Positions 32,072 to 62,046 of a DNA stretch of 64,000 bases are shown here, piece after piece. Within the stretch, counting starts at the first letter, position 1; each line of letters starts with the position of its first letter. The notes beneath the pieces were generated by a model that did no database searches, was not told where the DNA came from, and saw only the letters and a list, made by a program, of their open reading frames with translations. Source of the stretch: Candidatus Omnitrophota bacterium (GTDB taxonomy: Bacteria; Omnitrophota; Gorgyraeia; 2-01-FULL-45-10); contig JBAZUO010000006.1 of NCBI GenBank assembly GCA_041661345.1, positions 3,410 through 67,409 on the forward strand, in the 5' to 3' direction. Both the position numbers and the translations under genes were made by a program.

Positions 32072-32081
32072 GACAGCCGCT

Positions 32082-35601: not shown

Positions 35602-35610
35602 AGGTTCGCC

Positions 35611-36966: not shown

Positions 36967-36967
36967 C

Positions 36968-38044: not shown

Positions 38045-38048
38045 CGGT

Positions 38049-40530: not shown

Positions 40531-40533
40531 AAC

Positions 40534-41505
40534 CTATTCTTTCCCGAACAATTTATGTTTAAAATAATCCACGATGCCGCAAAACATGGCAATATCTATC
40601 CACACCATTATCGCGGTTACAAGAGTCACCCCTCTTATGCTTAATTTATCAGATAGCGAAGCATCTTTCCTTCTTTCAAATATCAATCCCAGGGCCCTTG
40701 AGGCCAATCCTACCAATAGTAGAATAAACCATAATGGTGAATTAAACACGCCTAACAAAGCAATGATCAAACCAAAGGCATACATCACCAATACAGATTG
40801 ATGCCAATCCCGCCACCTTCCTGCCTTTATATCATGCATCGAATAAAGAAAAAACCTTTTGAATACTGCTGAAAAATTGGAAGGTATATCCCATAGCACC
40901 GTTGCTTCGGGCGCGTATGCGGTCTTGAATCTCCCTTTTTTAATTTTTTCCATAAATATGCGGTCTTCGGCGGCTCGAAAATCAGGAAAGCCGCCTACGG
41001 ATTCCCAAACCTTTTTTCTCATGAGGCTGGACGCGATAAAGTGCGAACGCATCTTCTTCCCGTTTATCAATTTTGGCGCAGGTACAAAAGCAACCGCCAA
41101 ACACTCTTTAAAGAACGAATCCGTTACCGGCTCATAATTTCCATAAACGACATCGACGCCATTGTCCTCTTCCACGCATCTATACAAATATTTAAGCCAA
41201 TTTTTATCAAGCTTTATCCCGGCATCCGTCATAGCTATCATATCGTATTTTGCATTTTTTATGGCTATGTTCCTGGCCTTGCCTGGATACGAGTCATTCG
41301 CTTTTATAAGCTGTATGGGCATGCCCTTCCTTTTATATGACTCTATGATCTCATCAGTCCCGTCGATAGAGCCACCATCGGTTATCACGACCTCATCAGG
41401 TGTAAGGCTCTGCCCGATTACTGAATCCAGAAGCTTCGCTATAGAATCCTCCTCGTTCTTCACGGGTATTATTAACGATATCCTATCCGGCATGGTTGGC
41501 CCCAA
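40534..41505 (-). CDS. GT2-family glycosyltransferase with C-terminal TM helices
   Basis: 323 aa. Motifs ISLIIPVKNEEDSIAKLLDSVIGQSL, VVITDGGSIDGT and AMTDAG. C-terminal TM helices: VLVMYAFGLIIALLGVF..., VTLVTAIMVWIDIAMFCGIV. Confidence 0.85.
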   Translation of the reverse strand: MGPTMPDRISLIIPVKNEEDSIAKLLDSVIGQSLTPDEVVITDGGSIDGTDEIIESYKRKGMPIQLIKANDSYPGKARNIAIKNAKYDMIAMTDAGIKLDKNWLKYLYRCVEEDNGVDVVYGNYEPVTDSFFKECLAVAFVPAPKLINGKKMRSHFIASSLMRKKVWESVGGFPDFRAAEDRIFMEKIKKGRFKTAYAPEATVLWDIPSNFSAVFKRFFLYSMHDIKAGRWRDWHQSVLVMYAFGLIIALLGVFNSPLWFILLLVGLASRALGLIFERRKDASLSDKLSIRGVTLVTAIMVWIDIAMFCGIVDYFKHKLFGKE

Positions 41506-42982
41506 ATATCAGTTTCAACCTTGATTTAGCAATATCAACGATCTTGTTCTTCTCCGAACCCGTCGCCATAATATACAGCCAAAACGCTAATAATATCAAT
41601 TTGAAAATGGATGTTAAAATATCGTCGCTTCCGATAAATACAATGGCTCCCGCAACGACAATTCCGGAAAGGATGAGCATCGCGTTCCTTGCATAAAGCC
41701 TGAAATCCATCTTTTTAATATGATAATAAAGAAGCGCTGAAAACTGGACAAGATTCGCAGCCAGGTATGATGTCGTGATCGCCTTAAGGCCAAGCGGCTT
41801 TAACAACAAAATAAAAAATCCTATATAGCACACCGTATATAAGAGGTTAAAACCCAAGTAGCTCCTCAGTTTTGCGCTTGCCAATAGTGACGTTCCCATA
41901 ATATAAGACAGGATATAGAAAAAATCACCGGAGAGCTCCGTGGCAAAGAGTTCGCTCGAGGCGGTAAATTTCGCCGAGAATAACATATGAATAATCGCAT
42001 GCCTGAATAAAAATAATCCCGCGATCGACACCACTACCCCGAAAGCACAGAAACGAAACGCGTTATTTATTTCACGCGCATACTCGCCCTTTTCCTTGAT
42101 CGAGCTTATCTTCGGATAAAAATACGACCATAGGCCATTGGTAAAAAATGTCAGGTAGTATGCGGACAAGGCAAAGACGACCTGATAATAACCGCTTGCT
42201 TCCACGCCGATGTTCTTTATTACCAGGGATCTTAAGAAAACTATATTGGCCATCGTAAGAATTCCGGCGCCAAAAGACGCCCCGCCGTACGACAGGAGGT
42301 CCTTGCCGAACTTCCTGAAATTATCCCTTATCGATACAAAGTTTTTTACGCTGAATATTTCTTTAAGTAAATTTTTTGGCAGGCTTTTATCGAGAAGGTA
42401 CAGGTAAACAGAGAAGGTTAAAATGCCGTTTACCGCAAGGTATATGAAGCCTCCGTTTATATTCATTAAGGATATGAAGATGAAAAGCGGTATGAGAGAT
42501 AAAACGCTGGAAAAACTCCTCGCCTTTGTAAATGCCTTATAATTACCAAAACCAAAAAGTACCGATTCTCCTGTAGATGCAATCACAAAAAACGGAATTC
42601 CGACTGTCGCTATAAATATAAAGAACCCGTAGCCTTCACGCGAAAATAGCAATTTTGAAAACATGCCGGAAAATAATAACGTTAACAGCATCAGCGCAAA
42701 CGACGCTATCACCTGCATCCAGAAAGCGCATGATATGAGTCCGCTTGTTTTGGAAATATCATTATCGGTATTATACTTCGAGACGTATTTCGTCACTCCC
42801 AAGCCTATACTTAAAGATGATATCGTAATTATGAGCTGTTGAAAATTCAGCGCCTGCGAAAATATTCCCACACCGGAAGGACCTAATGTTAGCGCCGTGA
42901 ACTTCGCCCTTACAACACCTACCAGGATGTAAGTAAGCGTCGCTATCGACGTTATCGTAGTTACTTTAAAGAGCTTTAACAT
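41483..42982 (-). CDS. wzx: Wzx-like polysaccharide flippase (MOP/PST superfamily)
   Basis: 499 aa, about 12-14 TM helices. The N-terminus ITSIATLTYILVGVVRAKFTALTLGPSGVGIFSQ is typical of O-antigen/teichuronic-type PST translocases. Confidence 0.75.
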   Translation of the reverse strand: MLKLFKVTTITSIATLTYILVGVVRAKFTALTLGPSGVGIFSQALNFQQLIITISSLSIGLGVTKYVSKYNTDNDISKTSGLISCAFWMQVIASFALMLLTLLFSGMFSKLLFSREGYGFFIFIATVGIPFFVIASTGESVLFGFGNYKAFTKARSFSSVLSLIPLFIFISLMNINGGFIYLAVNGILTFSVYLYLLDKSLPKNLLKEIFSVKNFVSIRDNFRKFGKDLLSYGGASFGAGILTMANIVFLRSLVIKNIGVEASGYYQVVFALSAYYLTFFTNGLWSYFYPKISSIKEKGEYAREINNAFRFCAFGVVVSIAGLFLFRHAIIHMLFSAKFTASSELFATELSGDFFYILSYIMGTSLLASAKLRSYLGFNLLYTVCYIGFFILLLKPLGLKAITTSYLAANLVQFSALLYYHIKKMDFRLYARNAMLILSGIVVAGAIVFIGSDDILTSIFKLILLAFWLYIMATGSEKNKIVDIAKSRLKLIFGANHAG

Positions 42983-43379
42983 ACTTTAAGAATTCCTCAT
43001 GATCCCGTATGTAGTCTGACTCCTTGTAAATATCTGAGGCAAGCACAAGTATAACGCAATCCTTTGAGAAATTATGCATCGTATGCCACACACCCGGTCT
43101 TAAGTATATTCCGACGTATGGCTTTGAAAGGGCTACCTTCTCCTTTTTATTTCCGTCATCAAGGCCAAGCTTGAACGAGCCGTTGACGCAGAAGATCGCC
43201 TGCTCCAGCTTCTTATGGGCATGCTTCCCTCTTACGGCACCCAAATGGCTTAAGTTATTGATAAAGTAGACCCTTTTAATTTTAAACGGGACTTGATTTT
43301 GGGCTTCGGCCACAACGAGATTACCGTCTACGCCGTCATCGATGAATTTTAATTCTATCTTCCTATAAAAGCTCTTCAT
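42966..43379 (-). CDS. fdtA: WxcM/FdtA-like cupin: dTDP-4-keto-6-deoxyhexose 3,4-ketoisomerase
   Basis: 137 aa. Motifs FKIKRVYFI, RGKHAHKKLEQAIFCVNGSF and PGVWHTMHNFSKDCVILVLAS. Size and motifs fit FdtA/QdtA rather than RmlC. Confidence 0.75.
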   Translation of the reverse strand: MKSFYRKIELKFIDDGVDGNLVVAEAQNQVPFKIKRVYFINNLSHLGAVRGKHAHKKLEQAIFCVNGSFKLGLDDGNKKEKVALSKPYVGIYLRPGVWHTMHNFSKDCVILVLASDIYKESDYIRDHEEFLKYVKAL

Positions 43380-44505
43380 ATATCTCCGTTATTTTTTTTA
43401 TTTCCTTTTCCAACGATAAATTTTCATTAACGTATTCACTGGCATTTTTCCCAAGGATATTACACAGTCCCGGATTCTCAATTAAATATTCCATCTTTTC
43501 CGCCAGGGATCCCGGGTCATCAGGCCGGCACAGGATGCCGGTCTTACCGTCAATTACGGATCTCTCCGATCCCGGGAACGGCGTTGTTACTACAGGCATT
43601 CCCGAAGATTGGGCGGCGACGAGCGTCAATGAAGGGCCGCCTTCATCATCGCCGTCTTTGGCCGCTATCGATGGGAGCACGAATATATCATTACTGTAGA
43701 GATGTTCCTTATAAAGGCTCGCGAATTTTGAACCCATACCTGAAGTATCCATAATCGAAACGCGGTTTCCTATTTTCAATTTCTTTATACAGTCGTCCAG
43801 TACTTTTTTTTGCCCGGGAGAGCCGTATCCCAAAACCGTGAGCTTTACATCCCGCCCTTTATTGACCAGGCCGGCAATTGCCTCAAATAGTACGGGATAT
43901 CCTTTCTTCTCGACGAACCGGGCCGCGATTAAAAACTTAGTGCCATTCCCCCGCGTCCTGGGATTGTATTTGTAAAGAGAAAGATCGTTCAGGCAATCGG
44001 CAATCCTTATCTTTTCCGATGGACAGCCTATTTTTTCAAGCCGCGACTTCGCCTCCGTGCACAAGACAATGAATAGGCTTCTGGTCTTAAACATCCCCTG
44101 ATAACGCTTTATCCATTTTGCCTGCTTAACCAGCCGCGAAACATCCATGCCGTAGAATGTAACAACCATGGGCAGGCCTAGTTCATCCATAAGGTTTGCA
44201 AGGCCCGCGCCCACAGGCCCGAAGTGCGCATGGACAAGCGATGCATTTGAGTCACTCAGCATTCTTCTGTAAAAATTATTCCTTGCATTAATATAGATCA
44301 GCCTTGTTAAGATAACTTTTGAAAATATCGCGCATGGATTTTTATCAAAAATATATACATCCCCGTCGCTTTGTGACAGGTCTCCTGCCGCTTTTTCACA
44401 TAGCGTCACTAACTTATATCTGTCACCGACCGTTTTATAACAATGTGGCCCGTTCGGGTCACCGGCTGGATACGTTTCATATATGTGCGCTATCGTTTTT
44501 TTCAT
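43363..44505 (-). CDS. GT4-family glycosyltransferase
   Basis: 380 aa. Motif GGPSLTLVAAQSSGMPVVTTPFPGSERSVIDGKTGIL (E/GT-B C-terminal motif). Confidence 0.85.
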   Translation of the reverse strand: MKKTIAHIYETYPAGDPNGPHCYKTVGDRYKLVTLCEKAAGDLSQSDGDVYIFDKNPCAIFSKVILTRLIYINARNNFYRRMLSDSNASLVHAHFGPVGAGLANLMDELGLPMVVTFYGMDVSRLVKQAKWIKRYQGMFKTRSLFIVLCTEAKSRLEKIGCPSEKIRIADCLNDLSLYKYNPRTRGNGTKFLIAARFVEKKGYPVLFEAIAGLVNKGRDVKLTVLGYGSPGQKKVLDDCIKKLKIGNRVSIMDTSGMGSKFASLYKEHLYSNDIFVLPSIAAKDGDDEGGPSLTLVAAQSSGMPVVTTPFPGSERSVIDGKTGILCRPDDPGSLAEKMEYLIENPGLCNILGKNASEYVNENLSLEKEIKKITEIYEELL

Positions 44506-44515
44506 CTTAACCCTA

Positions 44516-45466
44516 TCATGCCTTCCTTAAAATAAAACAGATATTCTGTCCAAAATTTTTTATTACCGGGTTACCTCCTACGCGCCTTTCGATCCAGGAT
44601 AGGCGTTTGTATATGTCGAGGCCGAATCTTCTAAAAACAAGGCTTATGAGATTTCTCGGTAATACCATAAACGAAAATATATCGACTTCTTCCAGCCCGC
44701 TTTCCAGCAGCAATCTCTTCCATCTCGAAGGCAGATAATTATAAACCTCATCAAAATAATTTTTGTACGCGCCATGAGGCTCCGGAAGAGGAAAATGCGG
44801 CCTATTCTTCTTCATCCTCTCAAAAATGCCGAGGTTATCATCGCCGGAAACGATTGTCATGGTATCCTTTTTGCTTATCCGGCCGGAACTGCGCGTAAAA
44901 AGACGATGCCACATTGCCGACAGGAAGTCCGCGTAAAAAATTACCGGATAATAGGCTACCCTCTCCATGAAATTCGGGACTATAACGATAAATAATCCGC
45001 CTTTTTTGAGCACCCTCTTTACATCCGCGATCATCTTTTCCCTATTCGGGACATGCTCAAGCGTATACATCGAAAACACCATGTCAAACATCCCGGCCTT
45101 AAACGGCAGGTCTTCCCCTGAACATGAAACCAGCTCGCAGTTCCTGATCGCTAGACGCGCGGTTAATTCTTTCGCGGTACCCATCCCAACAGAGTGGCTC
45201 TTCGAATCCTGGCCGTAAAGATCCGTTGCAATTACGCTATCCGCAAATTTAGATAATACGCATGAATTGAAGCCATTGCCGCAGCCTATTTCCAGAAGTT
45301 TTCCGCAATCCTTTAAGTTTATAAACGATAAAAGATTTTCCATCTCCATGCCGCGCAGTTCAAAGTAATTACCCCACGGCTCAAGATTTCCCGCTTTTAT
45401 CCTGGCTTCGTTTTTTACTTCATCTACGCAATTCATTGAATATTCCCGCCAACTCCTGCGCCACAT
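44516..45466 (-). CDS. Class I SAM-dependent methyltransferase
   Basis: 316 aa. Motifs LLEIGCGNGFNS (motif I), FDMVFSMYTLEHV and KKGGLFIVIVPN. The start may instead be the internal ATG at 45436. Confidence 0.8.
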   Translation of the reverse strand: MWRRSWREYSMNCVDEVKNEARIKAGNLEPWGNYFELRGMEMENLLSFINLKDCGKLLEIGCGNGFNSCVLSKFADSVIATDLYGQDSKSHSVGMGTAKELTARLAIRNCELVSCSGEDLPFKAGMFDMVFSMYTLEHVPNREKMIADVKRVLKKGGLFIVIVPNFMERVAYYPVIFYADFLSAMWHRLFTRSSGRISKKDTMTIVSGDDNLGIFERMKKNRPHFPLPEPHGAYKNYFDEVYNYLPSRWKRLLLESGLEEVDIFSFMVLPRNLISLVFRRFGLDIYKRLSWIERRVGGNPVIKNFGQNICFILRKA

Positions 45467-46643
45467 AAGACCTGGTATAACTTTTTAATTTTTCTTCATC
45501 AATGCCGGATGCAACAAAGCCAATTTCCTTGTGTTCGTTGTAACACTTTAATAATATTTCTTTCAGCTCCTTTTTGGAATTAGCTACAAAACCGGCGTTA
45601 AGCTCTCTTACAAGGCCGTTCACGATACTGTCCTTTTCGGATATCACAATTATGGGCCTGCGGGAGCCAAGATATTCAAATATCTTGGCAGAATACCAGC
45701 CGCTAGCCCCTTTCCATTGAAAAAATAATAGCATCGACGAACTCTTCTGAATCCTTAACGCCTCCTTATAATCGACCGGGCCGTGCTCTTTCACTATATC
45801 ATCGATTTTGTATTTACCGGCAAGGCCCGATATATCGGCTTTTTCAAATCCCAGCGTATAGAATTCTATATCTATTTTATTCCTATCTATCGATCCATCC
45901 TTAACGCATTCGCTTACCGCCTCAAATAGGACTTCCGGATCCTGAGACACGCGATTCAGCTTGCCGGTATACCCCATAGTGAATTTTTCAGGCTTCATCG
46001 ATGGCATGCCATTAAAATCTTCTTCGTCGAATCCGTTTGTAACAACCCTTATCCTGCTCGGCGCAACTCTGCTCGTTCGCGCCAGGGCTCGCGCCCAATT
46101 ACTGGAGACTATTGTAATCAAGTCAGCGTCTTTTAGGACTTTTCTTTCAAGCGGTATGGAAAATATACGCTTTTTTAGAAAAAATTCCTTTTCGAAATGG
46201 TAGTCCGACCACAGATCCCTCATATCCGCTATCCACGGAAGCCCCGTCTTCTCCTTGACCAGCCTGCCTATCATGTGTGCGGTCGATGGAGGAGACATCG
46301 AAAAAATGACATCGAACCTTTCTTCTCCATGCAATTTTAAAGCCTGCTTCAATGCGTGATCCAACCAACCTATATTGGTATCCGGCACTAAAAGTAACTT
46401 CCTCAATCTATCGGGAAGAAACACGAATTTCTCCTCATAGCCGGTCTTTACGATTTTATAAAAATTCATGTCCATTCCGGCATCCTCTGATCTGGACATA
46501 GAGGCCCGCGCGCTGTCATCGGTCGTGAGAACCGTAGGCATCCACCCAAACTTGGGCAGATACTTCACGAACTTTAAAGCCCTCATCACGCCAACACCGC
46601 CTTTGGGCGGCCATGAATACGTTATGAACAAGACCTTCTTCAT
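45420..46643 (-). CDS. GT4-like (GT-B) glycosyltransferase
   Basis: 407 aa. N-terminus MKKVLFITYSWPPKGGVGVMRALKFVKYLPKFGW, as in many GT4 'group 1' enzymes. Two Rossmann halves. Confidence 0.7.
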   Translation of the reverse strand: MKKVLFITYSWPPKGGVGVMRALKFVKYLPKFGWMPTVLTTDDSARASMSRSEDAGMDMNFYKIVKTGYEEKFVFLPDRLRKLLLVPDTNIGWLDHALKQALKLHGEERFDVIFSMSPPSTAHMIGRLVKEKTGLPWIADMRDLWSDYHFEKEFFLKKRIFSIPLERKVLKDADLITIVSSNWARALARTSRVAPSRIRVVTNGFDEEDFNGMPSMKPEKFTMGYTGKLNRVSQDPEVLFEAVSECVKDGSIDRNKIDIEFYTLGFEKADISGLAGKYKIDDIVKEHGPVDYKEALRIQKSSSMLLFFQWKGASGWYSAKIFEYLGSRRPIIVISEKDSIVNGLVRELNAGFVANSKKELKEILLKCYNEHKEIGFVASGIDEEKLKSYTRSYVAQELAGIFNELRR

Positions 46644-46662: not shown

Positions 46663-47733
46663 TCATCTGCCCTTATTATCGGTACACACCATGCATGGCT
46701 CCGGGAGAAGAGAGCTGTCTTTCGATAAAAATTTTCTTCTCATCGATTTGAAAAATTCGTTATTCCAGACATCGGCATCCCTGAAACTGCCGTGCCCTTC
46801 CATGTTAAGAAGCATCATGGAACAACTGGAAACGTTCCCGTCCCCATCGATCCTTATCTGTGAAAAATATGTGCTACAGCGTATCTGCTTAGATTGCGCA
46901 TCCACAAGGATCGGCGGCGTGATCTTTTTTCTCACAGAAACAGGATATTTTTTTAACATACCTTCGATTTCTGCCGATAAATCAGGGTCATACATCAATA
47001 CTCTCTCCTCAGCCCTGAGCCCATCATATGGGCTTGGCAGAAAATTGCAGAAAAAGATACGGTCAACGCCAAGCTTTAGCCCTACGCCTACCATTTCCGG
47101 GATAAATTTGTAATTTAATTTGTCTACTATAAACGAGAGCTTTATATTCACTCGCGAGCGCCTTCTATCCCTCTCCTCCACCAAATGTTTCGTCGCATCA
47201 TATATCTGATTATAGATACCGCCGTCCATGCCGGTCATCCTCGCAAACTCTTCCGGATTATGGCCGTTGATGCTTATCGTTATACCGTCCAGCTCTGAAT
47301 TCAATATATTGTCTATATTTTTTTCTATAACGGTACCGTTTGAAAAAGTTTTAACGACCATCCTCCTGGAAGCGGCGTAATCCACCATCTTGAATAAATC
47401 CTTATTTAGGAGCGGCTCGCCGGAACCAATGATATGAAGAGTAACGGCACTGCTAAAGCGATCCACTATCTCTTTGAACATAATAAAATCGATATCCTTG
47501 ATATTATTCTGCCGGTTAGGGTAATCACGCGGCACACGTGATGAATGTGTGGGGCACATATCACAGGCAAGCGTGCAGCGGTTTGTCGCCACTATCGAGA
47601 TCGTTACCGGAGCATATTCAAGGCATTCCCTCCTCCCTGAAAATAGATATTTAATATAATTATATTTCTGCGGGATCGTATGATTGCTCCATACAATCTC
47701 TAAAATATCTCTGATCATGGCAATCGTATTCAT
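46663..47733 (-). CDS. Radical SAM enzyme with Cys-rich SPASM/twitch-like C-terminus
   Basis: 356 aa. Motif VATNRCTLACDMCPTH (CxxxCxxC). C-terminal cysteines at RCSTYF, VSSCSMM and PCMVCTDN. ATGA-coupled to the upstream class B radical SAM gene. Confidence 0.85.
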   Translation of the reverse strand: MNTIAMIRDILEIVWSNHTIPQKYNYIKYLFSGRRECLEYAPVTISIVATNRCTLACDMCPTHSSRVPRDYPNRQNNIKDIDFIMFKEIVDRFSSAVTLHIIGSGEPLLNKDLFKMVDYAASRRMVVKTFSNGTVIEKNIDNILNSELDGITISINGHNPEEFARMTGMDGGIYNQIYDATKHLVEERDRRRSRVNIKLSFIVDKLNYKFIPEMVGVGLKLGVDRIFFCNFLPSPYDGLRAEERVLMYDPDLSAEIEGMLKKYPVSVRKKITPPILVDAQSKQIRCSTYFSQIRIDGDGNVSSCSMMLLNMEGHGSFRDADVWNNEFFKSMRRKFLSKDSSLLPEPCMVCTDNKGR

Positions 47734-49211
47734 ACTGCCTTATTTTTGTTGAGGGACAGAAATTTCTTGATGGACAGCTTAATGTCCGTAAGCATCTTAT
47801 TATTGAACACATACTCATATAAAAAGGCATTAGTATATACACCTGCAAGAAAGGCTGCTGTTGCGGCGCCTACACCCATTTTTCTTAATTTGGCATATAG
47901 GTGTTTATTTGAATACGCGCGCCTGTTCTTCCTGGTAAATCTCGACGTAGTCTTATACGCATAACTAAAGGCTTTCTTTCTCAACTCATAGGGAAAATCC
48001 GGAGTCGATAGAAATGGCGTATTTACGCGCTGAGAGCCGTCATTGAGGTAGGCCTCCGGTTCTCTCAATAAATAACCGTGTGCCTTCGCATAATCAAAAA
48101 GCTCTGTGTTCGGATAAGGTAAAAGGTGATAAAAACTCGCAGTCATTATTGGATATTTCATGGCCAATTTCACCGATTTCTCAAATTCATGCCAGGTCTC
48201 GCCCGGCGAGCCTATCAGTAGGAAAATCTCCACCATATAATCAAGCTCGCAGGCCATTCTTATGGCCTCTTCCATATCCTTTACGGTAGCGGACTTTTTC
48301 AGGTTCTTAAGTATCTTGTCATCGCCGGATTCGACCCCCACGCCCAACATCTTGAATCCCACCTGCCGCATGCGCTTGAGGATATTGTAGTCAAGCCTGT
48401 CCGCCCTTACGCCGTTATCGCACATCAAATATATATCCTTGAAATTTCTTTTTTCAATCTCATCACAAAATTCGTAAACCCTTTCTTTCATCAGCGTAAA
48501 ATTGTCGTCCCTCATGCTGAATTCTCGATGCCCCTGCCTATAATGATATTCTATCTCGTCCACTACATTTTTAGGCGAACGCGCGACGAATCTCTTCCCT
48601 ATAGCAAGCTTAACGGGGCAATATATACATTCAAAGGGACAACCCCTTGAAGAAAAGATCGAGACCAGAGACATATAATCTTTCTTTTTGAATTTTAAAT
48701 ATTTAGGGTATGGGAGGCTGTCGAGGTCCTGAATAAACGGCCTGTCCCCATTATAAACAACATTGCCGTCTTCGCGATGGATCAATCCTTTAATTTCATG
48801 CAGATCTTTCTGCCCTGAAATTAACTCCATGAGCGTCTCTTCGCCCTCCAACACTACGCCGTAATCGATGGCATCACATTTTTTCAAAACCTCATCCCTG
48901 ACCGTAGAAACGTGAGCGCCGCCCGCCGCCGCCTTTAGATCCGGGAACGACTTTTTTATCCGCCTTATCACCCCGTAATTATACAAATAATTCAGGCTCA
49001 TCATGCTGAACCCGACCATATCCGGTTTAAAATTAGTTATCTTCTCGCGCAGTTTTTGTTCTGTGTTCGTTCGGACATTCAGGTCGAATACGTCGTTCTC
49101 GATACCCTTTGAACTCAGAAGCTCGGAGAGGCATCCTATGCCTGCTGGAAGAACGTTCGAAAATATGGAGTCGTACTTGGCCTGGACCAGTAATATTCTT
49201 TTATATCCCAT
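47730..49211 (-). CDS. Class B (cobalamin-binding-domain) radical SAM enzyme, paralog 6
   Basis: Motifs AAGGAHVSTVRDE...VVLEGEETLMELISG, then SRGCPFECIYC. Track start 49301 overlaps asnB by 101 nt. I prefer ATG 49211 (MGYKRILLVQ), 5 nt after the asnB stop. Confidence 0.9.
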   Translation of the reverse strand: MGYKRILLVQAKYDSIFSNVLPAGIGCLSELLSSKGIENDVFDLNVRTNTEQKLREKITNFKPDMVGFSMMSLNYLYNYGVIRRIKKSFPDLKAAAGGAHVSTVRDEVLKKCDAIDYGVVLEGEETLMELISGQKDLHEIKGLIHREDGNVVYNGDRPFIQDLDSLPYPKYLKFKKKDYMSLVSIFSSRGCPFECIYCPVKLAIGKRFVARSPKNVVDEIEYHYRQGHREFSMRDDNFTLMKERVYEFCDEIEKRNFKDIYLMCDNGVRADRLDYNILKRMRQVGFKMLGVGVESGDDKILKNLKKSATVKDMEEAIRMACELDYMVEIFLLIGSPGETWHEFEKSVKLAMKYPIMTASFYHLLPYPNTELFDYAKAHGYLLREPEAYLNDGSQRVNTPFLSTPDFPYELRKKAFSYAYKTTSRFTRKNRRAYSNKHLYAKLRKMGVGAATAAFLAGVYTNAFLYEYVFNNKMLTDIKLSIKKFLSLNKNKAV

Positions 49212-51093
49212 GCTCTTGCCTCGTATCAATAAATCTCCTGAGCCATAATTCAAGGTTAATCCAGCTCCATACGGCATAACAGGCATCCTTTTTCCCTTCA
49301 ATAAACAGTTCGTATGTTTTCATAACATTTTCGCTGTTAAAATATGGACGGCTCCTGAACTCTCTGGAATTGAGGATCTCTCTCACCTTATCCTTAAGAT
49401 CCGCTTTAAACCACTTCTCGAGAGGCGTGGCAAATCCCATCTTATCTCTTCTTAGCCTGACTTTATCGGGTAAGATACCCTTAAGCGATTCCCTCAATAT
49501 ATATTTTGTGAATCCGTTCTTTATCTTATATTCCGGCCCCAATGAGAACAAATATTCCACAAGCCTGTAATCCAAAAATGGCGCCCTCGTTTCTACTGAA
49601 TGCGCCATGCTCGACCGGTCATCTATGTGCAGAAGGGATGGAAGCGGAGAAATTTTAAGCGCATTGTACAGGTCATTATTTAATATGCCGGAGAATTTTC
49701 TTTCAATCTTTACCTTGCCGCTACTGTTCATAACAAATTCCCTGTCCAGATAATCCGGTGTTTTCTTTTCTCTGATGCTATCGATCAAATTTTTAAAAGT
49801 CCGGGGTGTAGAATAAGAAAACAATATTTTAAATATGCGGCCGGCCACATCCTCGTCGCCCTTGAAACTCCTGTAAATATCGATCTCCCTAACGGCATCG
49901 GGCCACTTAAAAGACCGGATCAGATCCGCAAATAAATAAAAATAATATTTATGATAACCCGCGAGGATCTCATCTCCACCCTGGCCGGTCAAAAGCACTT
50001 TAACCCCTTTATCCCTCGCGGCCTTCATCACATACCACTGCGGGAATATGCTTAAAGTACTGTATGGCTCGTCCTGATGCCATATTATTTCTTCCATCTC
50101 GCCAAAAAGATGTTCAGGCTTGGTAAATATAAAATTCGGCCTTGCCTTCGTTCTTTCCAATACCAGGTTTATAAACTTTCTCTCATCGTATTTATCGTCT
50201 TCGAAACAGGATGAAAAAGTTTCGATCGGACTGCCTTTAAGAATATCCGCCGCAATACACGCGATAGATGAAGAGTCGAGCCCTCCGCTTAATGAGATCC
50301 CCAGAGGAACATCGCTTCTTAACCGCAGCCTGACGGAATCTTCGAAAAGCTCACGAAATTTATCACATGCCTGGCTTTCCGATCGCGGCAGTGCCCTCTT
50401 ATTCGGATCGAGGTCCCAATATTTCACCTGAATAAATTTCTTATCCGGAATCGACAGTTTTATGTAGTGGGCGGCCTTAAGCTGCCTTACGGATCGGAAA
50501 AATGTCTCGTCGGAAATATCCATATAACCATATCCCGAGGCGAGATAATTAAAGACAGCCTTGTCGTTAGCTTCCCTTTTTATCCGCGAGTTAACAAGCA
50601 GTCCCTTGATTTCGGATGCGAATATAAAAGCGGAGTCATCCAAGTAATAGTAGAAAGGTTTAACGCCGAATCTGTCTCTTGCGCAAAAAATCTCTTTCTT
50701 CTTTATATCCAGGATAGCGAACGCCCACATACCGTTAAAATGTTTAAGGCAATCCTCGCCCCATTCCTCGTATGCGTGGATAATAACTTCCGTGTCTGAC
50801 CTGGATCTGAATATGTGGCCGAGCCTCGCCAGCTCTTCTCTCAACTCGACGTAATTATAGATCTCGCCGTTATGCACAATGTAGAGGGTCGAATCCTCGT
50901 TAGGCATCGGCTGATGGGCAACTTTGGAAAGGTCTATTATGGAAAGCCTGGCGTGGCCCAGGCCGATGAAACCGTCTAAATATACACCCATATCGTCAGG
51001 GCCGCGATGCCGCAAGGATTTTACCATCTCCTCAAGGATGCCCCTGTCGGCAGGCTTTCTATCCAGATTAACTATACCGGCTATGCCGCACAT
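49201..51093 (-). CDS. asnB: Asparagine synthase (glutamine-hydrolysing) family amidotransferase, glycan-modifying type
   Basis: 630 aa. MCGIAGIVN (N-terminal Cys nucleophile, Ntn GATase), SLSGGLDSS (PP-loop) and a long C-terminal synthetase domain. Confidence 0.9.
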   Translation of the reverse strand: MCGIAGIVNLDRKPADRGILEEMVKSLRHRGPDDMGVYLDGFIGLGHARLSIIDLSKVAHQPMPNEDSTLYIVHNGEIYNYVELREELARLGHIFRSRSDTEVIIHAYEEWGEDCLKHFNGMWAFAILDIKKKEIFCARDRFGVKPFYYYLDDSAFIFASEIKGLLVNSRIKREANDKAVFNYLASGYGYMDISDETFFRSVRQLKAAHYIKLSIPDKKFIQVKYWDLDPNKRALPRSESQACDKFRELFEDSVRLRLRSDVPLGISLSGGLDSSSIACIAADILKGSPIETFSSCFEDDKYDERKFINLVLERTKARPNFIFTKPEHLFGEMEEIIWHQDEPYSTLSIFPQWYVMKAARDKGVKVLLTGQGGDEILAGYHKYYFYLFADLIRSFKWPDAVREIDIYRSFKGDEDVAGRIFKILFSYSTPRTFKNLIDSIREKKTPDYLDREFVMNSSGKVKIERKFSGILNNDLYNALKISPLPSLLHIDDRSSMAHSVETRAPFLDYRLVEYLFSLGPEYKIKNGFTKYILRESLKGILPDKVRLRRDKMGFATPLEKWFKADLKDKVREILNSREFRSRPYFNSENVMKTYELFIEGKKDACYAVWSWINLELWLRRFIDTRQEHGI

Positions 51094-51099
51094 GGATTT

Positions 51100-52215
51100 T
51101 TATCTCTTAAAGAATTCCATGATCTTTTTTATAACGTAATCCTTCTGTTCGATTTTCAGTTCCGGATAAACGGCGATCGCGAATGTTTCGAGCGATGCGG
51201 CCTCAGACTCTTTCAGGTCTCCTTTTTTATATCCAAGGCTTTTATAACATTCCTGCAGGTGAAGCGGTATCGGGTAATAAGTTCTGGTCTCAACGCCGCC
51301 GTCTACGAGAAACCTCATCAGCTTTTCGAGGCCGGACCGGACTCTTAAAACATACTGATGATAGGTATGAATATTATGGCTGGGAACGTAAGGCAGGATT
51401 AATGGCAGGGTTTTTAAATTTTCATTATAATACATCGCATTGGCCCTGCGCGCTGCAAGCCATTTATCGAGATATCTTAATTTAACCCTCAACACAGCGG
51501 CCTGGATATTATCAAGCCTTGAATTGGTTCCGATTACGGCGTGGACATATCTTACGGAACTGCCGTGAACTCTCAACATCGTAAGCCTTTCAGCCAGGCT
51601 CTTGTCATTAGTAACTACCATGCCGCCTTCGCCGAATGCCCCGAGGTTCTTGCTAGGAAAGAAGCTTAGCGCCCCGAGATCCCCCATTGAACCGGCTTTT
51701 TTGCCTTTATATACGGCGCCTATAGCCTGAGCGCAGTCTTCCACGATCTTTAGCCCATGTTTCCCGGCAATGGCAAGTATCGGATCCATCTCAGCGCATT
51801 GGCCGTAAAGATGAACGGGTATGATAGCCTTAGTTCGTTTACTGATCTTCCGCTCGATGAGATTAGGGTCTATATTGTATGTCTTTGGGTCGATATCCAC
51901 GAATACGGGCTTCGCGCCCACCAGCGAGATGACTTCCGCGGAAGAGAAGAACGTAAAAGGCGATGTGATCACCTCGTCACCCGGTTTTATCCCAAGCGCC
52001 ATAAGCGACAATAGGAGCGCGTCTGTACCCGATGCCACACCTACGGCATATTTCGTATTACAATACCGGGCGATCTCCTTTTCAAGTTCCTTTAAATCTT
52101 CGCCCAATATAAAATTCTGGCTTTCCACCACCCTGTCAACAGCTTCCTTTACCTCTTTTTTGATCGTTTCGTATTGCCCTTTTAAGTCTAATATAGAAAT
52201 CTGCATACCCTTCAT
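51100..52215 (-). CDS. DegT/DnrJ/EryC1/StrS-family PLP-dependent sugar aminotransferase
   Basis: 371 aa. Motifs GVASGTDALLLSL, IIPVHLYGQCAEMD and LSFFPSKNLGAFGEGG (catalytic Lys context). Confidence 0.9.
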   Translation of the reverse strand: MKGMQISILDLKGQYETIKKEVKEAVDRVVESQNFILGEDLKELEKEIARYCNTKYAVGVASGTDALLLSLMALGIKPGDEVITSPFTFFSSAEVISLVGAKPVFVDIDPKTYNIDPNLIERKISKRTKAIIPVHLYGQCAEMDPILAIAGKHGLKIVEDCAQAIGAVYKGKKAGSMGDLGALSFFPSKNLGAFGEGGMVVTNDKSLAERLTMLRVHGSSVRYVHAVIGTNSRLDNIQAAVLRVKLRYLDKWLAARRANAMYYNENLKTLPLILPYVPSHNIHTYHQYVLRVRSGLEKLMRFLVDGGVETRTYYPIPLHLQECYKSLGYKKGDLKESEAASLETFAIAVYPELKIEQKDYVIKKIMEFFKR

Positions 52216-53693
52216 CCTTTCTTGATATTATTTTTTAAATTCCTTTTAACGAATTTATTCACCCCAAGCCCGGACAAAACCACCATAAGTTTTTTAAAAT
52301 TTATAAGCCTCCCCGCCAGAAATCCGATCACCAGACCATATCTTTTCGTGAATAGCCCTGTAAAATATTTTGTAGCGACACGATTGCTCAGCCTCTTACC
52401 AAGTTTTAACGCCTTTATCCTGTCCTTGCATGGAAAATCATCCGTTTCAAAGATAGGAAATCCGGAATAATAGGAAAGCCGGTCGAGGTATTTCTCATCC
52501 TTATCAAGAAAAATAGAATTTTTTCTGATCCAGTCAAATACTTCTGTCCCCGGATAAGGAACGAGATTATAAAAATTGATCTTGTCTACGGGCCAGTTTT
52601 CGACCTTTTTTATATACTCCCTGATCATATTTAAATTTTCACCGGGATGTCCGATAATAAAAGTTGCGCCGACATACTCTATTCCGGCCTTTTTTGCAAG
52701 GCGCACCGCGCTTTCCGCCTGAGAAACCTTTATCCCCTTACCCATTCTCGCCAATATATCATTGTTCCCGCTTTCCACGCCGAACATGATAATTTTACAT
52801 CCGGATTGCTTCATCTTAAGGAGGAGGGATTCGCTGACCCTGTCCGCTCTCGTACCATTACCTAAAAACCAGCTTATTTTTAAATCGGCTTTGATTATAA
52901 GATCGCAAATCTCCTCTGACCGTTTCATGTCAAAGGTAAAGCAATCATCTATGAATTCGAATTCCTCATACCCTAAGTTTTTCCAATGGATGAGTTCGTC
53001 AAATACATTTTTAGGAGAGCGCGGCCTAAAATTTCTTCCCATAGTCAGCCTTACCGCACAATAATTACAATTATAAGGACAGCCTCTTGATGACGCGATA
53101 TTGATCCTCTTCCTCCTGGCGTATCTATCTATCTCAAAATCTTCATACGCCGGAAAAGGAAGGCTGTCCAGGTCCGTTATGGGCTCCCTGTCGGCATTTT
53201 CCGTAACTGCGCCGTCTCTTTTAAAAATCAGGCCTTTTATCTCTTCCGGGCCGGAAATATTGCCTTTAAGAAATTCCAGAAGCTCAATAAGCGTGAATTC
53301 CCCCTCACCCTTGATCGCATAATCAGCTTCGGTCTCACGCAAACTCTCCTGTCTAACCGATGAAACGTGGGGCCCGCCTATAACTACAGGAATATCAACG
53401 ATCTCTTTTATTTTCTTTATCAAGGCTTGTGTTTTGCTTCGCTCGAGGCTCCAATAGCTTATACCTACAACGGTCGGTTTGTAATCGGCAATTATATCTT
53501 TTATATCTCCGACAGAATAACCTAATCGCATATCTATAGCCTTAAAATCTATAGAATTCTTCTTCAGCATCCCCGATAGATAGGCCAAACCCACAGGAGG
53601 CTCATTAGGAACGCCGAGATCAAAACTCTCAATACTTATCTTAGGCATGATAAGCAGTATATTATGCGAACTTATCGGTCTATTCTGCTGCAT
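52212..53693 (-). CDS. Class B (cobalamin-binding-domain) radical SAM enzyme, paralog 7; first gene of the 53693->32993 array
   Basis: 493 aa. Motifs VIGGPHVSSVRQE...AIKGEGEFTLIELLEFL, then SRGCPYNCNYC. Confidence 0.9.
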   Translation of the reverse strand: MQQNRPISSHNILLIMPKISIESFDLGVPNEPPVGLAYLSGMLKKNSIDFKAIDMRLGYSVGDIKDIIADYKPTVVGISYWSLERSKTQALIKKIKEIVDIPVVIGGPHVSSVRQESLRETEADYAIKGEGEFTLIELLEFLKGNISGPEEIKGLIFKRDGAVTENADREPITDLDSLPFPAYEDFEIDRYARRKRINIASSRGCPYNCNYCAVRLTMGRNFRPRSPKNVFDELIHWKNLGYEEFEFIDDCFTFDMKRSEEICDLIIKADLKISWFLGNGTRADRVSESLLLKMKQSGCKIIMFGVESGNNDILARMGKGIKVSQAESAVRLAKKAGIEYVGATFIIGHPGENLNMIREYIKKVENWPVDKINFYNLVPYPGTEVFDWIRKNSIFLDKDEKYLDRLSYYSGFPIFETDDFPCKDRIKALKLGKRLSNRVATKYFTGLFTKRYGLVIGFLAGRLINFKKLMVVLSGLGVNKFVKRNLKNNIKKG

Positions 53694-53720: not shown

Positions 53721-53750
53721 ATATTAGCATGGAGGAAGGCTTTATGTCAA
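53721..53750 (-). promoter_or_regulatory. Putative sigma70-type promoter of the 53693->32993 array (TTGACA-18-TAATAT, with TGn extended -10)
   Basis: The reverse complement reads TTGACA taaagccttcctccatgc TAATAT. The -35 box is at 53750..53745 and the -10 box at 53726..53721. A TG sits 1 nt upstream of the -10. Leader of about 27 nt to ATG 53693. Confidence 0.45.
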
Positions 53751-53872: not shown

Positions 53873-53901
53873 TTGACCTATAAATATCGCAGTGCTATAA
53901 T
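53873..53901 (+). promoter_or_regulatory. Putative sigma70-type promoter (TTGACC-17-TATAAT) giving a leaderless or near-leaderless transcript of the 53911 gene
   Basis: TTGACC at 53873..53878, the 17-nt spacer tataaatatcgcagtgc and TATAAT at 53896..53901. ATG 53911 begins 10 nt after the -10 box. There is no Shine-Dalgarno in tttggcgat. Confidence 0.55.
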
Positions 53902-53910: not shown

Positions 53911-54636
53911 ATGTCAACCTTAATAGTAATGCCAACGTACAATGAATGCAACTGCCTGGAGAATATCTTAAGGGCTATTTTAGCTCTAGGCCTTGACATA
54001 AAAATTTTGATCGTCGACGACAATTCCCCTGACGGCACAGGCCGTATCGCTGACGCCCTGGCAAGATCGGATAATCACATATCTGTATTACACCGGCCAA
54101 AGAAGGAAGGCTTGGGGAAAGCCTATCTTGAAGGCTTCAGGCGCGCCCTCGAAGATAAAGATGTCGATTATATAATGGAAATGGACGCCGATTTTTCGCA
54201 TGACCCAAAATATATTCCAAAATTCCTCGAGGCAATATCCGACTGTGATATCGTCATCGGCTCCAGATTTTACAAGGGCAGGATCAGCATAGTCAACTGG
54301 CCTCTCTCGCGGCTTATCCTGAGCTACGGGGCGCGTATCTACGTAAGATTATTTGCCGGGCTGGGCTTGAGCGATCCTACAAGCGGCTTCAAATGCTTCA
54401 GGCGCCGCGCGGTGGAAATGATCTTGAATAATGGGATAATATCGAACGGGTACGCCTTTCAGATAGAGGTAAACTACGCTTGCAAAAAACTGGGGCTAAA
54501 ATTCGGGGAGATCCCTATAATATTTTATAACAGGGATATAGGTACTTCAAAAATGGGCGCCCTGCGCACAGTCATAGATGCGATGGCTATTGTATGGTTA
54601 GTCAAATTCAAAAGATTCACAGGAAGCATTAAATAA
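53911..54636 (+). CDS. Polyprenol-phosphate mannose/hexose synthase (Dpm1/Ppm1-like GT2, soluble form)
   Basis: 241 aa. Motifs LIVMPTYNE, LIVDDNSPDGTG, EGLGKAYLEGF, MDADFSHDP and IGSRF. Confidence 0.9.
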   Translation: MSTLIVMPTYNECNCLENILRAILALGLDIKILIVDDNSPDGTGRIADALARSDNHISVLHRPKKEGLGKAYLEGFRRALEDKDVDYIMEMDADFSHDPKYIPKFLEAISDCDIVIGSRFYKGRISIVNWPLSRLILSYGARIYVRLFAGLGLSDPTSGFKCFRRRAVEMILNNGIISNGYAFQIEVNYACKKLGLKFGEIPIIFYNRDIGTSKMGALRTVIDAMAIVWLVKFKRFTGSIK

Positions 54637-58842: not shown

Positions 58843-59778
58843 TTACTGATTAAGCCTGAACCATTCTATGGTCCGGAAAAGGCCGTCTTCAAGCTTAACC
58901 CGGGGCTTCCATTTAAGAATTTTTTTGGCTTTCGATATATCCGGCCGTCTGACTTTAGGATCATCGACCGGTAAACTCTTATAAACGATCCTAGACTTTG
59001 AATTTGTGAGTTTTATTATGGCCCTGGCTAATCTTACGAGCGACAATTCGTTGGGATTGCCGATGTTAACTGGCAGATTTTCTTTGGACATAAGCAGCTT
59101 ATAGATTCCATCCACAAGATCCGAAACATAACAGAAACTCCTGGTCTGGGAGCCGTCGCCGTAAACGGTGATGGGCCTATTCTTCAACGCCTGACTGATA
59201 AAATTCGGTATGGCCCTTCCGTCGTTTTCTCTCATTTTTTCGCCGTAAGTATTGAATATCCGGACGATCTTCGTGTCTATTCTATGGACCTTATGATAAG
59301 CCATTGTGATCGCTTCCGCAAAGCGTTTCGCTTCATCGTAAACACCGCGCGGGCCTATCGGATTCACATTACCCCAGTAACTTTCCGGTTGCGGATTGAT
59401 GAGCGGATCGCCGTAAACTTCACTTGTTGAAGCCAAAAGAAATACGGCTTTCTTGGCTTTCGCCAAACCAAGGGCATTGTGGGTCCCCAAAGATCCGACC
59501 TTAAGCGTCTGGATCGGATATTTGAGATAGTCTATCGGGCTTGCCGGAGACGCGAAATGTAGGATATAATCAATTTTACCTGTTATGTTTATTTTTTCCG
59601 ACACATTATGTTTTACAAATTTGAAATTCCTGTCTTTCAGCAGATGCTCTATATTCGACATCTTGCCGGTGATGAGATTATCCATGCAAATTATACGATA
59701 ACCCTTTGCCAGAAAAAACTCGCAAAGATAAGACCCTAAAAAACCGGCGCCGCCCATTATTAAAACACGTTTTTTCAT
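58843..59778 (-). CDS. uxs: UDP-glucuronate (or UDP-HexNAc-uronate) decarboxylase, UXS type extended SDR
   Basis: 311 aa. Motifs [51 protein letters not shown] and [26 protein letters not shown]...[16 protein letters not shown]. Confidence 0.9.
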
Positions 59779-60740
59779 ATTTCTTTAAACCAATCTACGG
59801 TTCGATCTAAACCTTCCTCAAATTTCACTATCTTCTTGATTTTCAAAAGCCGTTTCATTTTGCTTATATCGGCACATGATTTTCTGACATCACCGCGCCT
59901 CTTTGGGGCGGATTCGCATTTTAAATTTGTACCAAGCAGCTTATTAAGCTCTCTTACTATATCATTGATCGATGTCGTCGTGCCGCAGGCGATATTAAAA
60001 ACCTCCCCCGATATGCCAGGGGTGACGCAGGCTTTCAGATTTGCCTCAACGACGTTCGATACAAAGGTAAAGTCTCTCGATTGTTTCCCATCCCATTCTA
60101 CTACCGGGCTTTCACCTTTCATCATTTTAGAGATGAACATCGGGATAACAGCCGAATATTTCGACTCTGGATTCTGCCTGGGGCCGAATACGTTGAAATA
60201 TCTCAAGGAGACCGTCTCCAGACCGAATGTTTTCGCAAACGTCACGCAATAATTTTCCGCCGCGAGTTTCGATACGCCATACGGAGATATCGGTGATGCA
60301 TGATCCGTTTCTTTCTGCGGAAACTTTTTTGCGTTACCATACGCCGAGCTGGATGACGCGTAAACAACCCTTTTAACTTTATTATCTTTTGCGGCCATCA
60401 GAAGATTGAGGGTGCCGAAAACATTAACATCGTTCGTCATGAAGGGGTCTTCGACTGACTTTGCCACAGAACGAAGCGCGGCCTGATGGATAACAAAATT
60501 CACACCCCGGAGAGCCTTGTCCAGCAATCGCTTGTCCCTTACGTCGCCCTCGATAACTTTTATCCTGTCGAGAAAAGGTTCTATATTTTCGCGTTTACCG
60601 GTAGTGAAATTATCGAGAATGCGGACTTCACCGACTTCAGGGGCAGTGCCCTTCTGGGACAATCCCTTCCGTCTCAGGAGCTCTTCGACGATATTGGAGC
60701 CTATGAATCCCGCGCCGCCCGTCACAAGATAACTTGCCAC
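59775..60740 (-). CDS. NAD-dependent nucleotide-sugar 4-epimerase (WbpP/TviC-like)
   Basis: 321 aa, GTG start. Motifs [30 protein letters not shown] (YxxxK), [24 protein letters not shown] and [18 protein letters not shown]. Confidence 0.85.
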
Positions 60741-62044: not shown

Positions 62045-62046
62045 GG

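Follow-up and report, generated by a model that had tools for sequence, protein, structure and literature searches.

A recurring aminotransferase, amidotransferase and radical SAM core in a putative glycan operon of an Omnitrophota bacterium

What sugar might be built by a run of genes in which radical S-adenosylmethionine (radical SAM) enzymes flank a sugar aminotransferase and a glutamine amidotransferase? The question is posed by five genes in a 64,000-nucleotide stretch of DNA (G000:C6:3410-67409, the window in what follows) of a 1.6-Mb, 89% complete genome. The closest homologues of the window's proteins bear Omnitrophota or Omnitrophica names, the Omnitrophota being uncultured, often very small or host-attached bacteria. 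The five genes specify, in order, a class B (B12-binding) radical SAM enzyme (P0001), a DegT-family aminotransferase (P0002), an AsnB-family amidotransferase (P0003), a second B12-radical SAM enzyme (P0004) and a small radical SAM enzyme (P0005). An earlier note on this DNA had given that order, and Pfam and NCBIfam scans bear it out: all five genes lie on the minus strand, tightly packed (Table 1). The note went on to view them as a self-contained sub-pathway yielding an aminated and amidated (or amidino) sugar for the radical SAM enzymes to modify further.

The reading favoured here, which taken as a whole we hold to be rather probable, is that the block forms the promoter-proximal end of a long operon of O-antigen or exopolysaccharide (EPS) type in an Omnitrophota bacterium; that its conserved core (aminotransferase, amidotransferase, small radical SAM enzyme and an adjoining GT4-type glycosyltransferase) is a module for making and transferring an amino- and amide-bearing sugar, with the amidotransferase WbpS-like by its context and forming a uronamide; and that the B12-radical SAM enzymes are lineage-specific tailoring additions. 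The note's assignment of these genes to glycan tailoring is supported by their company (glycosyltransferase, Wzx, FdtA, RmlB/RmlD, UXS-like and WbpP-like genes). The block is not self-contained: the array of genes runs on past position 46663, and the dehydrogenase and epimerase genes that would feed the amidotransferase lie upstream, outside it. There is nothing unusual in the DegT and AsnB parts. What is unexplained, and mildly novel, is the conserved small radical SAM enzyme, of the 'twitch' form, together with the abundance of B12-radical SAM genes in these glycan loci.

A core that recurs without the whole block

P0005 is the best conserved unexplained part of the block, and it was used to search the host genome and 400 other sampled Omnitrophota genomes. 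Matches at E <= 1e-20 were found in 19 of the 401, and seven of the 400 others hold an orthologue of 50-64% identity. Up to 20 kb was fetched around these seven loci and around two weaker matches, and all open reading frames (ORFs) of at least 90 residues were compared with the window's proteins. An AsnB-type gene (48-66% identity) and a GT4-type glycosyltransferase gene (35-41%) are in the locus in all seven; in six, a DegT gene (66-73%) lies directly before the AsnB gene or one gene away, and in the seventh (G067) the contig ends there. P0004 has an orthologue (63-65%) in two of the seven (G033 and G015), and the stretches fetched around the seven contain no P0001 orthologue above 33%.

Species genomes were then covered with an alignment of 23 relatives of P0005, which gave 190 confirmed stretches, from which 79 loci were kept and 21, at 35% identity or more, were analysed. 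This adds the Omnitrophota loci L036, L037, L042, L043 and L045 and the Nitrospinae locus L044. In L036 the DegT, AsnB and P0004-type radical SAM genes stand in the order of the window and are followed by two other B12-radical SAM genes; L044 has AsnB, radical SAM and GT4 genes and no DegT gene; L048 has AsnB and radical SAM genes; and a Sericytochromatia locus (L047), on a 3-kb contig, has radical SAM and GT4 genes. The GT4 orthologues (31-41%) come straight after the radical SAM gene in the Nitrospinae and Sericytochromatia loci; in Omnitrophota they do so too, or one or two further radical SAM genes intervene. Most Omnitrophota loci have a DegT orthologue of 66-73% identity; the figure is 54% in L043 and 49%, over a 98-residue fragment, in L042. 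DegT and AsnB genes are at most one gene apart in 11 Omnitrophota loci (the window, G033, G208, G051, G015, G187, G012, L036, L037, L042 and L043), L042 being counted on the strength of that fragment, at the start of its contig.

The two B12-radical SAM genes, paralogues that are 36% identical over their full length, behave differently from this core. P0004 orthologues (52-66%) stand between the AsnB and small radical SAM genes in G033, G015/L039, L036, L042 and L045 (52-56% in the last two). P0001 has a single orthologue among the 400 genomes, in G051 (71%), all others being at or below 45%; it lies about 9.5 kb upstream of the DegT gene, beside a Ugd-like gene and rml genes. The best match in Joint Genome Institute (JGI) metagenome contigs is 44% identical, and looking for the five-gene unit by way of P0001 in these contigs and the 400 genomes thus turned up one orthologue, not adjacent to DegT. 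(Directly before that orthologue is a gene for a 717-residue protein, L140:5543-7696, in which a B12-radical SAM enzyme is fused to a class I methyltransferase domain.) More distant B12-radical SAM homologues (40-47%) sit among glycosyltransferases, with no AsnB or small radical SAM gene in their short flanks. What recurs in Omnitrophota is accordingly a core of DegT, AsnB, optionally P0004, twitch radical SAM and GT4 genes; the five genes as a conserved cassette, which the earlier note had expected, were not found together elsewhere. The idea that three radical SAM enzymes modify one sugar is not supported either, as only the small one shows conserved linkage to DegT and AsnB. We take the B12-radical SAM enzymes to be interchangeable, lineage-specific tailoring enzymes of these loci, probably C-methylases, and not fixed members of the module.

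Linkage of the small radical SAM gene to an amidotransferase reaches beyond the Omnitrophota. Among 25 loci whose radical SAM protein is at least 35% identical to P0005 (the window, G033, G051, G187 and the 21 from the species-genome scan), 20 have an amidotransferase gene near it, of AsnB type in 18 and WbuX with HisF2 in two (in one case also with HisH). Seventeen of the 25 have an AsnB-family gene no more than about 4 kb from the radical SAM gene, and G051 has one within 6.5 kb. In a Riflebacteria locus (L055:11489-13662) WbuX (254 bits) and AglZ/HisF2 (339 bits) genes adjoin the radical SAM gene, and in a Nitrospirae locus (L056:7502-9989) WbuX (254 bits), AglZ/HisF2 (357 bits) and HisH genes do so, the WbuX and AglZ/HisF2 scores all being above their cut-offs; the radical SAM proteins there are 35-37% orthologues of P0005, and an acetamidino-forming system replaces AsnB. 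No amidotransferase gene was seen near the radical SAM gene in L046, L049, L051 and L054, and the contig of L047 is too short to tell. Since the 25 loci are kin and were chosen through their radical SAM gene, the 20 of 25 is a descriptive count only.

Two loci are unusual in their own right. L026 (L026:11601-15409, genome G067) has two tandem AsnB-family genes whose longest ORFs begin MSGIAG, placing serine at the expected glutaminase nucleophile Cys2. In L050, of a Dehalococcoidia, the longest ORF of the AsnB-like gene begins MAGICG; a UDP-GlcNAc 3-dehydrogenase-like GFO_IDH_MocA gene and a gene for an acetyltransferase of AAC(3) fold (L050:3030-6119) lie just upstream of this gene, a glycosyltransferase gene and the radical SAM gene.

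Aminotransferase, amidotransferase and the likely sugar

Sugar C3-aminotransferases are what P0002, on its sequence, is nearest to. It has the DegT fold, and its matches in the PDB are the uncharacterised entry 7b0d (366 bits), QdtB (335), WbpE (311) and DesV (304), against 238 bits for perosamine synthase and 163 for ArnB; it is also far from PseC-type models. QdtB, WbpE and DesV are C3-specific, and the identity of P0002 to QdtB, judged by eye from the alignment, is about 50%.

P0003 begins MCGIAG (residues 1-6) and has SLSGGLDSS near residue 267, that is, the Cys2 nucleophile and the PP-loop expected of the amidotransferases WbpS and WbqG. It passes only the broad model TIGR01536 (487.8 bits; cut-off 267.1), and its best solved relative is the hydroxyamidotransferase 7ylz (192.6 bits). 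Several observations support the view that it is not a housekeeping asparagine synthetase: it scores 282.8 bits on the AsnB model NF006949, short of the cut-off of 499; its best-scoring aligned stretch with E. coli AsnB (PDB 1ct9) is residues 22-171 only, in the glutaminase domain; and it is a different AsnB-family gene of the host, on contig C13, that has a housekeeping setting, in the company of dnaK, dnaJ, DUF1015, accD-like and GGDEF genes. In a quick maximum-likelihood tree of 30 sequences, with support from the Shimodaira-Hasegawa-like approximate likelihood ratio test (SH-aLRT) only and with several long-branch rows, P0003 falls in clades of support 98 (6 rows) and 96 (9 rows) made up solely of locus-linked Omnitrophota AsnBs, apart from E. 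coli AsnB and the C13 paralogue; these two and the additional AsnB genes of L026 and L045 form a separate, weakly supported group (82). Other locus-linked AsnBs (G051, G187 and G012; 48-52% identity) make up a further set that groups elsewhere, with those of Nitrospinae and other phyla, so that the AsnB partner is not a single orthologous line. The earlier note had also allowed that AsnB-type enzymes form acetamidino groups in the manner of PseA; PseA-type enzymes fall in a family other than AsnB, WbuX, and PseA was dropped as a comparison.

The same note could not map this combination of enzymes on to any described pathway, which proves too strong. In Porphyromonas gingivalis the asnB-type wbpS gene PGN_1234 comes immediately after wbpE and wzx, and a mutant deleted for it no longer has a 2,3-diamino glucuronic acid in its uronamide form; wbpE and wbpS act on one sugar there, and WbpS and WbqG belong to the family of TIGR03108 (Veith et al., PMC7468200, in the portion available). 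With this precedent and the WbpO/WbpP-like pair upstream of the block, DegT and AsnB map on to a described route. Likenesses to the Wbp/WbpS/WbqG systems (P. aeruginosa O6 WbpO/WbpP/WbpS; E. coli O121 WbqG; P. gingivalis WbpA/B/E/D with PGN_1234) are several: a Cys2-bearing AsnB-family amidotransferase gene adjoins a gene of the WbpE class, Wzx is in the operon, and the locus has a dehydrogenase of the UDP-N-acetylhexosamine (UDP-HexNAc) type and a WbpP-like epimerase, which would supply a UDP-HexNAc uronic acid. The order of genes echoes wbpE-wzx-wbpS of P. gingivalis, as far as the available text of PMC7468200 gives it. This arrangement of WbpO/WbpP-type and WbpE-type genes is kept in G051, L037 and L043, where the trio of dehydrogenase, epimerase and decarboxylase genes likewise lies upstream of DegT. 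The differences are that neither a WbpB-type dehydrogenase nor a WbpD-type acetyltransferase is encoded in the operon, and that radical SAM genes are interleaved here, of which the same available portion of PMC7468200 makes no mention for Wbp loci.

From these domains, catalytic motifs, family placements and shared gene order we infer substrates and reactions as follows. A uronic acid would come from the WbpO/WbpP-like dehydrogenase and epimerase encoded upstream; DegT, as a member of the C3-aminotransferase class, would aminate a 3-keto nucleotide sugar; the AsnB-type enzyme would, like WbpS, turn the sugar carboxylate into a carboxamide with glutamine and ATP; the twitch radical SAM enzyme would perform one radical step on the same sugar; and the adjacent GT4 would transfer the product. 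The conserved core would in this way make and transfer an amino- and amide-bearing sugar, most likely of the 3-amino (2,3-diamino) hexuronamide class of the Wbp/WbpS kind.

The radical SAM enzymes and the competing readings

P0005 is better described as a twitch than as a SPASM protein. Its Pfam SPASM match is marginal (22 bits against a cut-off of 21.5, no stretch passing alone), and across 23 sequences the invariant cysteines are C53/C57/C60 and, towards the C-terminus, C286, C304, C347 and C350. The seven-cysteine SPASM motif for two auxiliary clusters is thus absent from these 23 sequences, and the four C-terminal cysteines suggest a single auxiliary cluster. Their spacing, Cx17C...x42...CxxC, is one that we take to resemble that of BtrN. 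An AlphaFold2 model (predicted local distance difference test, pLDDT, 94.6; predicted template-modelling score, pTM, 0.91) was compared with known folds (Foldseek, VIA-align): the top matches are DesII (Z 22.5, root-mean-square deviation (rmsd) 4.2, 305 residues aligned) and BlsE (Z 22.3, rmsd 3.8, 279 aligned), both of which act on nucleotide- or nucleoside-linked sugars. SuiB (Z 21.9), SkfB, CteB, PqqE, MoaA and anSME lie within two Z units of them. Identity to the sugar-active fold matches is 15-17%; the sole sequence-level match is SkfB (E 0.007), and there is none to BtrN. With Z scores of 20-22.5 tied among sugar and peptide enzymes, the fold does not fix the class of substrate. Context is more telling, in the linkage to amidotransferase genes described above and in a gene fusion: a 609-residue fusion of a radical SAM-SPASM protein with GT2, representing a cluster in the ESM Atlas, is a near structural neighbour (TM score 0.78). 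Several look-alike clusters in that atlas are dominated by phage (Uroviricota) records.

What radical step might P0005 perform? It may abstract hydrogen from a sugar C-H/C-OH and so leave a keto group for DegT, thereby replacing, under anaerobic conditions, the WbpB-type dehydrogenase that is missing. This is our preferred, if unproven, reading of the enzyme, and it is suggested by the lack of WbpB and FdtA in related loci, by the fold matches to DesII and BlsE and by the example of BtrN, which is partnered with a DegT-family aminotransferase, BtrS. The host operon has no WbpB-type 3-dehydrogenase gene. True FdtA, the 3,4-ketoisomerase, was found only in the host among six genomes checked; the five relatives give cupin matches of 23-25 bits near rml genes, which are probably RmlC-like, at a guess. 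WbpB-type GFO_IDH_MocA genes are present in the genomes but unlinked to the locus, except in G208, and the question of the radical SAM enzyme as dehydrogenase is not decided thereby. P0005 is like DesII, BlsE and BtrN in its fold, and like BtrN in its DegT-family partner; what sets it apart is a cell-surface glycan setting in place of an antibiotic cluster. BlsE acts on cytosylglucuronic acid (PMC3715490, in the portion available).

Both P0001 and P0004 have the N-terminal B12-binding domain and CxxxCxxC radical SAM core of class B enzymes, and thus the layout of the methylases 9ccb, CysS and TsrM and of the dehydratase AprD4; they differ in falling below all family cut-offs and in being embedded among glycosyltransferases. 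The top NCBIfam match of both is HpnJ (164 bits for P0001 and 177 for P0004; cut-off 577.6). Among solved sequences P0004 is nearest to 9ccb (61.6 bits) and after it to AprD4 and CysS; 9ccb is cited by two papers on B12-radical SAM enzymes, one of them, as far as the available text goes, on glutamine methylation in methyl-coenzyme M reductase. A C-terminal membrane anchor is not claimed for P0001 and P0004, the hydropathy there being only 1.3-1.55 and under the usual transmembrane threshold. As raw first-look candidates, there are 10-48 B12-radical SAM genes per Omnitrophota genome of 1.2-2.7 Mb, and 19 in the host, which suggests that the family is greatly expanded in the phylum.

A number of points weigh against the favoured reading or parts of it. 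P0003 reaches only 482.9 bits, in two stretches, on the TIGR03108 model (eps_aminotran_1), for which the cut-off is 816.9, and the references of the AsnB tree are confined to E. coli K-12 AsnB and the C13 paralogue. Neither the five-gene block nor the operon has an N-acetyltransferase gene. The tied fold scores of P0005 (20-22.5) do not favour sugar enzymes, and BtrN comes lower (Z 17.5, rmsd 3.0, 224 residues aligned) than DesII, BlsE, SuiB, SkfB, PqqE and anSME. There is no DegT gene within 10 kb of the radical SAM gene in the Nitrospinae locus L044 or in L046, L049 and L054-L056, which speaks against a radical SAM enzyme that exists to feed DegT, and L050 has both a WbpB-like dehydrogenase gene and the radical SAM gene; the keto-supply idea is weakened on both counts. 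For C-methylation by P0001 and P0004, the difficulty is that their NCBIfam scores are far below every family cut-off and that their relatives include the non-methylating AprD4. Lastly, FdtA with RmlB could feed DegT (for dTDP-Fuc3N) while WbpO/WbpP feed AsnB (for GalNAcAN), so that the two enzymes may serve different sugars.

Taken to its conclusion, this last point yields two independent textbook pathways: an FdtB/QdtB-type DegT acting on the RmlB/FdtA product to give a dTDP-3-amino-3,6-dideoxyhexose and a WbpS-type AsnB acting on the WbpO/WbpP product to give a GalNAcA-amide, with radical SAM enzymes decorating other residues or the finished repeat unit and adjacency reflecting operon packing. 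We think this unlikely, though deserving of serious weight. The window does encode a true FdtA (156 bits) along with RmlB and RmlD, DegT is about equally close to QdtB (335 bits) and WbpE (311), the epimerase is WbgU/WbpP-like and the dehydrogenase comes closest to those of the UDP-HexNAc type, and the distant B12-radical SAM homologues sit among glycosyltransferases without AsnB or the small radical SAM gene in their short flanks. Yet, in comparison with the FdtA/FdtB and QdtA/QdtB routes to dTDP-3-amino-3,6-dideoxyhexoses, whose QdtB-like DegT, FdtA and RmlB are matched here, the fdtA gene is eight genes off and an FdtC/QdtC acyltransferase is lacking; the five relatives without true FdtA still keep DegT (66-70%) directly beside AsnB; the two genes stay at most one gene apart in the 11 Omnitrophota loci; and wbpE and wbpS of P. 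gingivalis work on one sugar (PMC7468200, in the portion available).

Two further explanations would take the radical SAM enzymes away from nucleotide sugars. If they acted at the membrane on polyprenyl- or lipid-bound sugars (HpnJ- or lipid A/ArnT-type modification), the top rank of HpnJ for both B12-radical SAM enzymes, their moderately hydrophobic ends, the PMT_2/ArnT-like GT-C genes and small GT2 gene of the locus, and the existence of AsnB homologues that amidate lipid II-bound meso-diaminopimelate would all fit; but the HpnJ scores and the hydropathy values are well under or below their respective thresholds, and Pfam and NCBIfam scans of the window revealed no hopanoid or lipid A genes, which makes the proposal decidedly improbable. 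Still harder to credit is maturation of a ribosomally synthesized and post-translationally modified peptide (RiPP), with AsnB as a lasso-type or macrolactam cyclase, the B12-radical SAM enzymes as peptide C-methylases and the SPASM enzyme as a cross-linker. P0003 does reach 441.8 bits on NF033535, a lasso-cyclase model whose cut-off is 525, both B12-radical SAM enzymes match RiPP methylase models (ApyD, TIGR03975), and SuiB, SkfB and CteB are among the tied fold matches of P0005. All these model scores are nevertheless under their cut-offs; junctions of -11 to +19 nt are too tight for a precursor gene (the junctions alone, and not the rest of the operon, having been looked at for small ORFs); the P0005 model has just two short N-terminal helices before its core and no sign of a peptide-recognition domain, and the protein has four conserved C-terminal cysteines, not seven; P0003 retains the Cys2 glutaminase nucleophile, which lasso cyclases are not known to need; and all orthologous loci examined are glycan loci with glycosyltransferases, many also with Wzx or nucleotide-sugar genes.

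The operon and its meaning

The five genes make up the first quarter of a minus-strand array of about 20 (Table 1), which continues beyond the block to about position 32993 with overlaps or spacers of at most 10 nt, bar the 19-nt gap before the GT4 gene (whose product has no sequence match in the PDB). Within the block, two of the junctions given by the earlier note stand as they were, the 6-nt DegT/AsnB spacer and the ATGA at 47733-47730 joining P0004 to P0005. The ATGA at 52215-52212 between P0001 and DegT is present, but DegT probably starts at ATG 52206, which is preceded by AAAGGA and agrees with the alignment of QdtB residue 1 to DegT residue 4, and the junction may really be a 5-nt spacer. 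The supposed 5-nt gap between AsnB and P0004 is an error: the sole in-frame ATG, at 49211, overlaps the AsnB stop by 11 nt and gives a protein of 493 residues, in line with the orthologues (491-493 residues).

The promoter that the earlier note placed before the block exists as a sequence match and is weak evidence as such, matches of this kind being common here (54 in the scan against 36.3 +/- 5.6 in shuffled sequence), so that only its location in the divergent gap before P0001 favours it. An opposite-facing match, TTGACC-17-TATAAT at 53873-53901 (plus strand, 11 of 12 positions), shares that gap and stops 10 nt before the ATG of a lone plus-strand GT2 gene (53911-54636) that divides the two minus-strand arrays. 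The upstream array, a separate unit, also encodes a GDSL protein, PMT_2 and a GT2-methyltransferase. A second stretch rich in radical SAM genes lies at 20025-33035, with four further B12-radical SAM genes (29625-31106, 28015-29634, 21463-22914 and 20025-21458), a MarR-like gene, GT2, an ATP-binding cassette (ABC) exporter and two large proteins (664 and 539 residues) without Pfam or NCBIfam match, and, on the plus strand, a methyltransferase and another SPASM radical SAM gene (32055-33035). The window thus holds six B12-type and two SPASM/twitch-type radical SAM genes within 35 kb.

Table 1. Positions of the block, its putative promoter and associated genes in the window
Feature	Coordinates	Strand	Remarks
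Sigma-70-like promoter match TTGACA-18-TAATAT	53721-53750	-	10/12 positions; in 217-bp divergent gap before P0001
P0001, class B (B12-binding) radical SAM no. 1, 493 residues	52212-53693	-	Pfam B12-binding and Radical_SAM; CPYNCNYC cluster motif
P0002, DegT-family pyridoxal phosphate aminotransferase	51100-52215	-	Pfam DegT, 419 bits
P0003, AsnB-family glutamine amidotransferase	49201-51093	-	GATase_7 and Asn_synthase; Cys2, SGGLDS PP-loop
P0004, class B radical SAM no. 2, 493 residues	47730-49211	-	Pfam B12-binding and Radical_SAM
P0005, small twitch-like radical SAM	46663-47733	-	Radical_SAM and marginal SPASM match
GT4-type glycosyltransferase	45420-46643	-	Pfam; starts 19 nt after P0005; outside the block of the earlier note
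Remainder of array	32993-45466	-	Methyltransferase, GT4, FdtA, Wzx, GT2, PMT_2 GT-C, two GT4, GT2-methyltransferase, 602-residue protein without assignment, aldo-keto reductase
FdtA 3,4-ketoisomerase	42966-43379	-	True FdtA, 156 bits
Wzx flippase	41483-42982	-	
Upstream nucleotide-sugar genes, separate transcription unit	58843-63926	-	RmlB, RmlD, 6-dehydrogenase, 4-epimerase, UXS-like decarboxylase
UDP-HexNAc-type 6-dehydrogenase (WbpO-like)	60740-62044	-	Nearest NCBIfam models are UDP-HexNAc dehydrogenases
WbpP/WbgU-like 4-epimerase	59775-60740	-	WbgU 228 bits, WbpP 217 bits
UXS-like UDP-glucuronate decarboxylase	58843-59778	-	Human UXS1, 338 bits

Radical SAM genes are unusually numerous in Omnitrophota glycan loci. 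A literature search turned up no report of class B radical SAM enzymes in O-antigen or EPS loci, and no paper joining radical SAM, acetamidino and glycan; the single paper in which radical SAM, asparagine synthase, O-antigen and aminotransferase came together proved unrelated; the available portion of an Omnitrophota genome preprint mentions radical SAM only inside giant proteins. A bolder proposition, speculative and on present evidence unlikely, is that the twitch radical SAM enzyme, amidotransferase and glycosyltransferase constitute an undescribed radical route to envelope amino and amido sugars, in which the radical SAM enzyme, needing neither nicotinamide adenine dinucleotide (NAD) nor oxygen, would take over from WbpB- or FdtA-type enzymes by making a keto-sugar or other activated intermediate, and the B12-radical SAM enzymes would add methyl groups to unactivated sugar carbons of a surface polysaccharide, or change these carbons in another way. 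The same search yielded no report of such radical chemistry in O-antigen or EPS biosynthesis.

If the small radical SAM enzyme does not act on the amino-uronamide sugar, the locus is an ordinary, variable operon of the O-antigen type. The portable core of aminotransferase, amidotransferase, twitch radical SAM enzyme and GT4 is a concrete four-enzyme set to reconstitute. Should it be true that the radical SAM enzyme supplies or alters that sugar, this would be a new reaction for nucleotide-sugar biochemistry, and would also explain the presence of similar genes in Nitrospinota, Chloroflexota, Patescibacteria and Methanoperedens.

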